Assembly (NCBI RefSeq): GCF_944327125.1
Contig: NZ_CALVGO010000001.1
Location: 2,827 to 66,826 of the forward strand
Source: an uncultured Faecalicoccus sp.
GTDB lineage: Bacteria > Bacillota_I > Bacilli_A > Erysipelotrichales > Erysipelotrichaceae
DNA length: 64,000 nucleotides
Reading direction: 5' to 3'
Both the position numbers and the translations under genes were made by a program. Of the stretch, positions 32,294-33,262 are shown in pieces. Every line of letters begins with the position of its first letter. Within the stretch, counting starts at the first letter, position 1. The notes under the pieces are model-generated. The model was not told the DNA's origin. It was given only the letters and a program-made list of their open reading frames with translations, and searched no databases.

Positions 32294-32463
32294 ATCCGCT
32301 GCTTGGTTATTATGAAGATTTGGCACAATATTTGTTGTCGATTCAGCGCGAGATTGGTGTTTTGACGTCAAAAGAAGAAGGAGACTTGTTGATAAAGGGA
32401 ATCCAGGATCTATATATGCAGGTGCAGCTGCAGATCAAAGAAGTGATGCTCAATGGAAATTGA
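32290..32463 (+). CDS. untracked 57-aa helical protein (MNPLLGYYEDLAQYLLSIQREIGVLTSKEEGDLLIKGIQDLYMQVQLQIKEVMLNGN)
   Basis: The ATG overlaps the previous TGA (ATGA). An AGGGGA sequence lies 7 nt upstream. The stop overlaps the next ORF by 11 nt. It fills an otherwise non-coding 160-nt gap in a tightly packed operon. Confidence 0.55.
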   Translation: MNPLLGYYEDLAQYLLSIQREIGVLTSKEEGDLLIKGIQDLYMQVQLQIKEVMLNGN

Positions 32464-33262
32464 TACCCAAAGACTTAGACAGCTAGCCTATGGACTCATG
32501 TCTCGAAAGCGGTATGGCGGAACCTTAAAAGATCCCGTCCAACGTTTTAGACACGAACGGATCCAGGAAAAACTGAATGTTTTTATTGATCATCTTAACC
32601 ATACAGCCCATGCCTATGAGACAGCCGATCGGTCTTTGTTTTCGAATTTTAGAACATACAGTAAGGAGGGAACAGCTAGTTTTTATCACAGCGAAGATCT
32701 AAATTTGATTTCACAACTGACAAAAAAAGAAGATCCCAGTGTATTTTCAGTGGGAGCTTCATGGTCATTCAAGGAAGTGGGGGCCGTGTATCAGTCGAAA
32801 TATTTAAACGCTTCTCTTCGATCGGATTTAGGCTCCATTGAAGCTGAAGGATCGTGTTCCATAGGGCTATGGAAAGAAGGCGAATTTGATCCATCTCTTG
32901 ATCTGGAAGCACAGCTGGAAGCATCACTGGTTTCCTGCAGCGCACAGGCTCGTTTGGGAACAGCCAATGCGTATATACAGACAAAGGCCACTGGATCGAT
33001 TGGAACCGTTTATGCAAAGGCAAACTGTACCCTGACAAAAGAGGAACAAAACCTGGAAGCAGGCGTTGGAGCAGCGGCTCTTCGCGGAGAAGCATCGCTG
33101 GCGTTTAGTTTATTTGGGGCAAAGATCACCTTGACAGCACAAGGATCGATTGGAAGCGCCGAAGCCAATGTATCTTATCACCATAAAAACAAAGAGTGGG
33201 AGTTTTCCAGCAAACTGGGATTTATCGCAGGTCTGGGATTTAAAGTGAATGTCAAATATTAA
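32453..33262 (+). CDS. candidate T7SS substrate: helical N-terminus with YxxxD plus a repeated amphipathic beta-rich C-terminal domain
   Basis: 269 aa with no signal peptide. AHAYETAD at aa 53-59. Three G-S-I-[EG] repeats (LGSIEAEG, ATGSIGTVYA, AQGSIGSAEA). Ends in the alternating GFKVNVKY. Confidence 0.6.
   Translation: MEIDTQRLRQLAYGLMSRKRYGGTLKDPVQRFRHERIQEKLNVFIDHLNHTAHAYETADRSLFSNFRTYSKEGTASFYHSEDLNLISQLTKKEDPSVFSVGASWSFKEVGAVYQSKYLNASLRSDLGSIEAEGSCSIGLWKEGEFDPSLDLEAQLEASLVSCSAQARLGTANAYIQTKATGSIGTVYAKANCTLTKEEQNLEAGVGAAALRGEASLAFSLFGAKITLTAQGSIGSAEANVSYHHKNKEWEFSSKLGFIAGLGFKVNVKY

Follow-up and report, generated by a model that had tools for sequence, protein, structure and literature searches.

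The substrates known for type VII secretion systems (T7SSs) are either helical (WXG100, LXG, PE/PPE and Esp proteins) or carry enzymatic or helical membrane-active toxin domains. TelD of Streptococcus intermedius and TspA of Staphylococcus aureus are LXG toxins that depolarise membranes and are accompanied by membrane immunity proteins (DUF443); TelD is listed among the membrane-depolarising T7SSb toxins in the Discussion of a PNAS paper whose authors assume that the membrane-inserting parts of both toxins are alpha-helical (PMC12478183). According to the same work, TelD is neither stable nor exported without the small DUF4176 protein MQE10_09270 of S. intermedius (PDB 9DCS), small DUF4176 genes are rarely found beside LXG genes, and small DUF4176 proteins are speculated to shield membrane-inserting segments. 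A preprint on the pore-former TelE reports that its middle and C-terminal regions are stabilised by a DUF4176 protein. The subject of the present analysis is a protein of a different build, called here the beta-rich protein, which is encoded in a 64-kb stretch of DNA (hereafter the window) from an uncultured Faecalicoccus sp. of the Erysipelotrichaceae (contig NZ_CALVGO010000001.1, positions 2,827 to 66,826) and places an all-beta repeat domain behind a WXG100-like head.

Sequence profiles, structure prediction and genomic context suggest that the beta-rich protein is very probably a T7SS substrate and a likely client of the small DUF4176 protein encoded directly after it. The chances appear about even that it is a conserved substrate which depends on a chaperone and whose beta-sheet assembles into oligomers, a pore or a translocon, within a membrane or at its surface; that the beta domain actually inserts into the membrane is a somewhat doubtful proposition. 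The protein would be best classed as a T7SS substrate of a known kind, with a WXG-type head and a DUF4176 chaperone, whose new elements are the beta-hairpin-repeat domain and its core conserved status.

With TelD and TspA, the beta-rich protein shares predicted T7SS export, a linked small DUF4176 protein and the membrane as a proposed site of action. In contrast to them, it carries an all-beta domain and lacks both an LXG domain and an immunity gene, and its DUF4176 gene directly follows the client instead of lying beside immunity genes. With TelE and EsxX, it shares a small-xxx-small-xxx-small motif near the C-terminus and a proposed mode of action that is membrane-active and non-enzymatic; TelE also needs a DUF4176 protein. 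Nevertheless, the zippers of these toxins are longer (TelE 458-480) and that of EsxX has been resolved as an alpha-helix, whereas the segment of the beta-rich protein is a short one that lies within a repeat unit and shows the covariation of a beta strand. Moreover, both toxins need dedicated immunity proteins (TipE for TelE; ExiAB and ExiCD for EsxX).

Architecture of the beta-rich protein

The first 63 residues are predicted to fold as a helix-turn-helix, with AlphaFold2 (AF2) helices at residues 5-17 and 28-62. When the profile of the first 66 residues of the family was compared with that of the WXG100 paralogues of the same loci, hhalign returned a probability of 96% (E = 5.5e-9, 63 columns) for an alignment that covers the entire WXG100 domain, with a deletion of 21 residues in helix 1. 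The likeness to WXG100 (EsxA/ESAT-6) proteins extends to the pattern on helix 2 and to the position of the gene, right after two WXG100 genes and EssC. Yet, classical WXG100 proteins have about 100 residues and are all-helical, whereas a 175-residue all-beta domain follows the head here. The preliminary description, made from the DNA letters and a list of open reading frames, had taken the first 90 residues or so as helical; the helical head stands, but the helices end at about residue 62, and both AF2 and conservation make residues 64-95 a linker (consensus-residue fraction of 0.32 for residues 66-117; lower pLDDT, the local distance difference test score as predicted by AF2, at residues 61-70).

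Helix 2 carries a candidate export signal. The pattern HxxxD/ExxhxxxH, which extends YxxxD/E, has been put forward as a common T7SS recognition surface (PMC3935865), and the segment around Y55 fits it. The YxxxD motif which had drawn attention to this protein (H-A-Y-E-T-A-D) is indeed present, as YETAD at residues 55-59 (32615-32629). Since a second YxxxD exists in the same protein (Y78-D82), the bare motif is at chance level, and its weight comes instead from conservation and alignment: of 59 diverse relatives, 39 have Y at position 55, 55 have E or D at position 59 and 52 have L, I, V or M at position 62, and Y55-D59 aligns with the helix-2 motif of WXG100 proteins. Computationally, the head is thus shown as a homologue of the WXG100 helical hairpin bearing the export pattern on helix 2. 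No LXG domain (PF04740, about 200 residues) was matched in the beta-rich protein by the Pfam and NCBIfam scans, and only one of the 59 relatives reached it, below threshold (E = 0.0084). Together with the head and its motif, the linkage to EssC and WXG100 genes and the DUF4176 gene, this agrees with the initial proposal that the protein is not an enzymatic LXG toxin. The absence of a signal peptide was likewise borne out, and no transmembrane helix was found: the highest mean Kyte-Doolittle hydropathy over 19 residues is 1.12, compared with 2.0-2.6 in true membrane segments of the neighbouring proteins.

Residues 96-269 form a seven-strand up-down meander of amphipathic strands of 20-24 residues, organised in three hairpin repeats of about 50 residues. 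The repeated amphipathic tail that had been noticed on first reading is real in the AF2 models and in covariation, and its three G-S-I-[EG] motifs (GSIE at G127, GSIG at G181 and G231) lie at an identical offset within the three units. The repeats are significant at the profile level, with hhalign probabilities of 88-89% (E about 2-3e-6) among them and a score that none of 40 column shuffles reached. Three units were counted in 185 of the 203 family members in hand; five members have four or five, with a duplicated first unit. The full-length AF2 model, built from 30 sequences, has a mean pLDDT of 82.8 and strands at 96-114, 118-141, 144-169, 173-195, 199-220 and 223-243, followed by a low-confidence terminal hairpin (pLDDT about 52 over the last 20 residues). 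The model of the domain alone, built from 76 sequences, has a pLDDT of 83.4 and a predicted template-modelling score (pTM) of 0.77. The order of the strands was also read from a mean-field covariation analysis of 239 sequences (Neff 175), which gave antiparallel ladders at i+j = 233, 286, 343, 393, 443 and about 490 (z up to 9); these six ladders imply the seven-strand meander. The pair W249-V267 (33197-33253) gives the second-strongest covariation signal in the family and does not fit the otherwise supported extended last strand; it may stem from a contact between subunits or from an alternative state of the hairpin.

A hydrophobic moment of the beta type dominates from residue 116 on. One face of the sheet consists of conserved Ala, Gly, Leu and Ile and the other is polar, and Ala, Ser and Gly together make up 37% of the domain. 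The fraction of consensus residues is 0.40 in the head and climbs to 0.86 over the final 25 residues, a gradient which is the reverse of that of a polymorphic toxin. The label of payload initially given to the protein thus did not hold, as it is encoded by a conserved, single-copy operon gene and is not variable.

Conservation culminates in the terminal strand. The pattern G-h-G-h-p-h-p-h-p-[FWY] of the last ten residues is complete in 59 of 75 relatives and matched in at least nine of ten positions in 67 of them; the final residue is W, Y or F in 54 of 59. Erysipelotrichaceae are monoderm Bacillota. The comparison of the final GFKVNVKY with the ends of outer-membrane proteins (OMPs) is consequently justified for the alternating and conserved pattern, but not for its role: since the host is monoderm, this strand cannot be a signal for the beta-barrel assembly machinery (BAM). 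The reading of the protein as an OMP with a BAM signal was rejected on this ground and for its lack of a signal peptide, and covariation does not support a closed OMP-type barrel either.

Structural searches with Foldseek, using the full-length AF2 model against the PDB and the domain model against the PDB and the viral library BFVD, returned nothing at E<=1e-3, and thus no soluble fold of known function, which the preliminary description would have counted against its reading. The best matches of the full-length model were pore-state pleurotolysin, components of the membrane attack complex and perforins, with the RCD-1 pore and outer-membrane barrels lower (E>=4e-3, TM<=0.27), while omptins, NspA, OmpX and PagL headed those of the isolated domain (E>=0.088, TM<=0.39); the BFVD matches had the same flavour. 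A few relatives had sub-threshold Pfam matches to Porin_10, DUF4421 or HphA_C. The beta-rich protein and beta-pore-forming toxins, including MACPF and gasdermin-like proteins in their pore state, have in common antiparallel hairpins that are long, amphipathic and rich in Gly, Ser, Thr and Ala. However, the beta-rich protein has no soluble pre-pore scaffold domain, contributes seven strands per chain instead of one or two hairpins, and is predicted to leave the cell by a T7SS and not by Sec. With the small outer-membrane barrels (OmpX, NspA, PagL and omptins) it shares an alternating C-terminal strand with an aromatic end, but it lacks a signal peptide, comes from a host without BAM, shows no covariation for closure and has its glycine at position -8 from the C-terminus, not at -6. 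The positive evidence for a barrel is weak.

The DUF4176 neighbour, the operon and the family

The DUF4176 gene lies directly 3' of the beta-rich gene in 46 of the 47 loci recovered by the genome scan described below, the remaining one being cut off by a contig end, and none of the distant contexts that were inspected lacks it behind the beta-rich gene. Even relatives located away from core T7SS genes are followed by one or two DUF4176 genes. The pairing is kept where the N-terminal part differs, as in relatives with longer heads and in P0159, a relative of 731 residues in which a phospholipase-like (Mbeg1-like) domain is placed before the same beta domain. Since the DUF4176 gene tracks the beta domain whatever its N-terminus, the beta domain is the likely client. 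Candidates for a disordered amphipathic alpha-helical segment through which a client would bind its DUF4176 chaperone, and which would fold on it, are the poorly conserved linker (residues 64-95) and the conserved C-terminal segment. It had been remarked that only a DUF4176-like gene, and no immunity gene, follows the beta-rich gene. Both statements are correct, but the DUF4176 gene is not incidental: because members of this family act as chaperones of T7SS toxins (PMC12478183), it is the strongest contextual clue. Its listed GTG start (33269) is less well spaced from the AGGAGG at 33263-33268 than a second GTG at 33275, so translation may in fact begin two codons further on. Two further arrangements were seen among distant relatives. 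P0174 (L058 1653-2317) has four hairpin units and a C-terminal extension and is followed by two tandem DUF4176 genes; in three other loci (L057 528-3709, L003 11233-12157 and L056 6310-7242) the DUF4176 gene precedes a conserved protein of about 209 residues without a Pfam family, absent from the window, which could be an accessory or immunity protein.

The beta-rich gene is the penultimate gene of a T7SSe-like operon (23899-33553; Table 1). Its components match the lists given for T7SSe or the related T7SSj by Garrett, Higginson and Palmer (PMC11217815), except that no PP2C phosphatase and no small component with a single transmembrane segment was found in the window. The kinase-like protein retains the D-x-K-x-x-N catalytic loop (YIDVKKEN) and the DFN motif. 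The same paper, which defines T7SSc to T7SSj, mentions neither the beta-rich protein, nor DUF4176, nor Erysipelotrichaceae. The operon encodes a reduced T7SSe-like (or T7SSj-like) system, of a type that seems undescribed in this bacterial family.

Between the second WXG100 gene and the beta-rich gene lies an open reading frame of 57 codons that is translationally coupled to both: its start overlaps the WXG100 stop (ATGA), and the ATG of the beta-rich gene lies 11 nt inside its 3' end, overlapping its stop. In 43 of the 51 loci that were inspected, a frame of 43-74 codons, doubtful in a few cases, occupies this place; it usually overlaps the start of the beta-rich gene. The products are conserved helical proteins of one family, marked by YY[EQ]xL at the N-terminus, without a Pfam family and without profile similarity to WXG100 proteins or to the head. 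Position and conservation alone suggest that the 57-residue protein may be a partner in secretion or targeting.

The genomic distribution was studied with one genome per species and an alignment of the close family as query; as only the close family was used, named hosts are known only for Erysipelotrichaceae. All 47 loci belong to genera of this family, save a few misbinned metagenome-assembled genomes, and the hosts include Faecalicoccus, Holdemanella, Faecalitalea, Catenisphaera, Absicoccus, Dubosiella, Faecalibaculum, Ileibacterium, Merdibacter, Floccifex and Solobacterium. A phmmer census gave the order EssC, (YukD-like), WXG100, WXG100, (small helical frame), beta-rich gene, DUF4176, which holds in 46 of the 47 loci. 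WXG100 genes are found upstream in every locus with upstream sequence and EssC is part of the same operon in nearly all; in locus L052, EssC lies downstream on the opposite strand. The distant relatives (E down to 2e-26), of metagenomic origin, are found in the same module, with linkage to EssC and WXG100 genes in four distant contexts. The close homologues and most of the distant ones lie in T7SS loci, core T7SS genes being absent from three short distant contigs; an occurrence of homologues independent of T7SS genes, which the preliminary description would have counted against its reading, did not emerge. Beyond the DUF4176 gene, most Erysipelotrichaceae loci continue with convergent PrsA-like genes and the suf operon; as this flank is shared, the T7SS locus is vertically inherited. 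In the window, two tandem PrsA-like (PPIC-type rotamase) lipoprotein genes (33547-35476, minus strand) converge on the end of the operon. They are syntenic in most Erysipelotrichaceae loci, probably as mere neighbours, yet their products are foldases of secreted proteins.

The family itself is new to Pfam, NCBIfam, the PDB sequences and the literature that was searched. Among 5.8 billion proteins, 57 full-length homologues were recovered (237-285 residues, 34-99% identical), all of them hypothetical proteins of Erysipelotrichaceae. A profile search of 1.84 billion representative proteins (50% clustering) found 521 relatives at E<=1e-3, none of them annotated; many of the best 150 have 300-430 residues and a longer helical N-terminus. 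A second profile search, in which the 8000 candidates among the 5.8 billion proteins that had most words in common with the query were scored, added almost nothing. Pfam and NCBIfam scans returned no family for the beta-rich protein, nor for ten long relatives, and a profile search of the PDB sequences gave only coiled-coil noise. The literature searches found no description of the beta-rich protein, nor of a T7SS in Erysipelotrichaceae. The window holds no second copy of the gene. Elsewhere in it, two convergent frames of about 121 codons (14834-15199, plus strand; 15258-15626, minus strand) look like paralogous BlaI/CopY-type repressors and are unrelated to the beta-rich protein.

Table 1 Features of the T7SSe-like operon and of the beta-rich protein, in window coordinates
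Feature	Residues	Position	Strand	Basis or remark
FHA protein, weak DUF6382 match		23899-24885	+	T7SSe-like core
Membrane Ser/Thr-kinase-like protein		24872-26254	+	T7SSe-like core
Protein with signal peptide and C-terminal transmembrane segment		26264-28033	+	T7SSe-like core
FHA-bearing FtsK/SpoIIIE (EssC-type) ATPase		27984-31451	+	T7SSe-like core
78-aa protein at YukD position		31444-31680	+	T7SSe-like core
Two WXG100 paralogues (TseA/TseA2-like)		31695-31991, 32003-32293	+	Library scans, locus census
57-aa helical protein, candidate co-secretion or targeting partner		32290-32463	+	Translationally coupled to both flanking genes
Beta-rich protein		32453-33262	+	269 aa and stop, ATG start; WXG100-like head, linker, beta-hairpin-repeat domain
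WXG100-like helix-turn-helix head, helix 1 shortened	1-63	32453-32641	+	AF2, hhalign
Export pattern Y55-ETA-D59-RS-L62-FSN-F66		32615-32650	+	Fits HxxxD/ExxhxxxH, which includes YxxxD/E
Linker, poorly conserved	64-95	32642-32737	+	Consensus-residue fraction, pLDDT
First long beta strand	96-117	32738-32803	+	AF2 strand 96-114; pairs with 118-134; ladder i+j about 233
Hairpin repeat R1 (G127-S-I-E; invariant P147)	118-169	32804-32959	+	Repeat profiles; ladder i+j=286
Hairpin repeat R2 (G181-S-I-G)	173-220	32969-33112	+	Repeat profiles; ladder i+j=393
Hairpin repeat R3 (G231-S-I-G), most conserved part of the protein	223-269	33119-33259	+	Repeat profiles; ladders i+j=443 and about 490
Terminal alternating strand G-L-G-F-K-V-N-V-K-Y	260-269	33230-33259	+	Conserved, aromatic end; preceded by S252-x3-G256-x3-G260
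Small DUF4176 protein, predicted dedicated chaperone		33269-33553	+	Pfam E=2.4e-28; PDB 9DCS E=9e-11
Bidirectional terminator-like hairpin, 11-bp stem		33538-33562	.	Directly after DUF4176 gene; closes operon

Proposed membrane assembly and its alternatives

From these data we infer export, the roles of partner and chaperone, oligomerisation, membrane insertion and a target. The head, folded as a WXG100-like hairpin with the export pattern on its second helix, would present the beta-rich protein to the EssC-type ATPase, probably together with the coupled 57-residue helical protein. In the cytoplasm, the small DUF4176 protein would keep the aggregation-prone beta domain stable and competent for export, most likely by binding the domain common to all relatives, possibly at its very conserved hydrophobic C-terminus. 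After export, the seven strands would oligomerise within a lipid bilayer or at its surface and so hide their Ala/Gly/Leu/Ile face, since an amphipathic sheet of one layer could not be stable by itself in water; a pore or translocon-like structure would be formed in this way. A more specific scenario, in which an OMP-like protein kept unfolded by DUF4176 is exported by the T7SS and self-assembles into a beta-barrel or sheet pore in the membrane of another cell, either as the conserved translocon of T7SSe-like systems or as an OMP mimic directed at Gram-negative outer membranes, seems unlikely.

Several observations weigh against assembly in a membrane or against the substrate features on which it relies. 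All the Foldseek similarities reported above are non-significant (E>=4e-3, TM<=0.39), and the protein has no characterised homologue. Covariation does not connect the first strand with the last by any ladder (the best of 703 windows has z = 2.2), so a closed monomeric barrel finds no support and was rejected, and the odd number of strands argues against a simple closed antiparallel barrel. The strands are shorter and the loops longer in the AF2 model of the domain alone than in the full-length one, a disagreement that covariation, on the sequences at hand, resolves in favour of long strands. The hydrophobic face is mild, with a family-mean Kyte-Doolittle value of about 0.7-1.0 except in the last two strands. 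The head reaches PF06013 (WXG100) below threshold in only four of 59 members, and the family as a whole does not keep the W-x-G turn, the window protein having Y21-G-G at this place. Finally, the DUF4176 gene is the last of the operon and no immunity-like gene is linked to the beta-rich gene, although one would be expected beside an antibacterial pore-former.

An alternative would be a secreted structural protein that never enters a membrane, its sheet stacking or dimerising into a fibre, a surface layer or a wall-spanning conduit or tip of the T7SSe-like machine, which lacks an EsaA homologue. The gene is core, single-copy, syntenic and devoid of an immunity gene, its product is most conserved at the C-terminus, and the richness of the conserved sheet face in Ala, Gly and Ser would suit tight packing of sheet on sheet; the lack of support for barrel closure, a W249-V267 coupling that could be an inter-subunit contact and the range from three to five hairpin units in a few relatives are all consistent with such an assembly. 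Nevertheless, the characterised clients of DUF4176 proteins are toxins (TelA, TelB and TelD, PMC12478183; TelE in the preprint) and not structural proteins, and the phospholipase-like fusion of one relative suggests a link to membranes, so a structural role appears rather unlikely. Another explanation would retain the membrane but dispense with the sheet: the run S252-x3-G256-x3-G260 could insert as an oligomerising alpha-helix, as in depolarising toxins of the TelE/EsxX/TspA type, if the beta prediction were wrong there and immunity were encoded elsewhere. This run fits the definition (G/A/S)xxxGxxxG (PMC12744356) in the window protein and in the close family (G252 in 28 of 30 members, G256 and G260 in all 30), it lies within the last 20 residues, where the full-length AF2 model has a pLDDT of about 52, and the DUF4176 proteins of TelE and TelD (9DCS) show that such toxins may need these chaperones. 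Yet, its hydrophobic part (L255-F263) has only nine residues flanked by Lys, far from a membrane-spanning helix in a protein where no 19-residue window exceeds the value given above; 38 of 59 members of the wider family have Ser at the central position, covariation makes residues 249-268 a beta strand paired to 223-243, and the protein, which is conserved and not polymorphic, has neither an LXG domain nor a linked immunity gene. A zipper toxin is therefore quite improbable.

The beta domain could also belong to a soluble secreted effector that binds a glycan, a host protein, the cell wall or another non-lipid target, in which case its membrane-like features would be coincidental. The weak amphipathicity, the absence of transmembrane predictions and of significant structural matches, and the origin of the protein in gut commensals without a linked immunity gene are compatible with this idea, to which only a small likelihood is attached here: a seven-strand sheet with strands of 20-24 residues and a single small hydrophobic face does not look like a self-sufficient soluble fold, and neither the predicted dedicated chaperone gene nor the conserved OMP-like terminal pattern would be expected. 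Least probable is that the beta-rich protein is not exported at all and serves as a cytoplasmic accessory or regulatory part of the secretion machine that merely resembles a substrate. Its core and syntenic position in the operon would suit such a part, but the WXG100-like head with its export motif, the pairing with a chaperone and the amphipathic beta domain are features of substrates, and no known cytoplasmic T7SS component has this appearance.

An interbacterial polymorphic toxin was also considered and rejected, given the conservation gradient toward the C-terminus and the synteny; neither the single copy nor the missing immunity gene would suit such a toxin. The conservation, the single copy and the missing immunity gene fit a function in the core of the system or a non-self target. 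In this respect the translocators of type III secretion systems offer an analogy, though no more than that: they too are conserved instead of polymorphic, encoded in the operon of the machine with a small chaperone beside them, and the insertion into a target membrane that is proposed here would be a further likeness. However, they belong to an unrelated secretion system and are alpha-helical, and no evidence was found that other effectors depend on the beta-rich protein.

Whichever of these explanations prevails, an unannotated family of 521 relatives has a fixed place in the recently described and unstudied T7SSe-like systems of abundant gut Erysipelotrichaceae. It provides a candidate for a genetically linked client of small DUF4176 proteins, of which a single small member, the TelD chaperone, has been tested so far and for which client binding has only been speculated. 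As it is conserved and yet lacks an immunity gene, it appears to serve a purpose different from the killing of other bacteria, perhaps one aimed at the host. If the beta-rich protein were indeed an exported pore builder, it would be the first all-beta, pore-type T7SS substrate and would provide a physical route for T7SS cargo across a target membrane; the question of how T7SS effectors reach and cross such membranes would thus become approachable through this protein.

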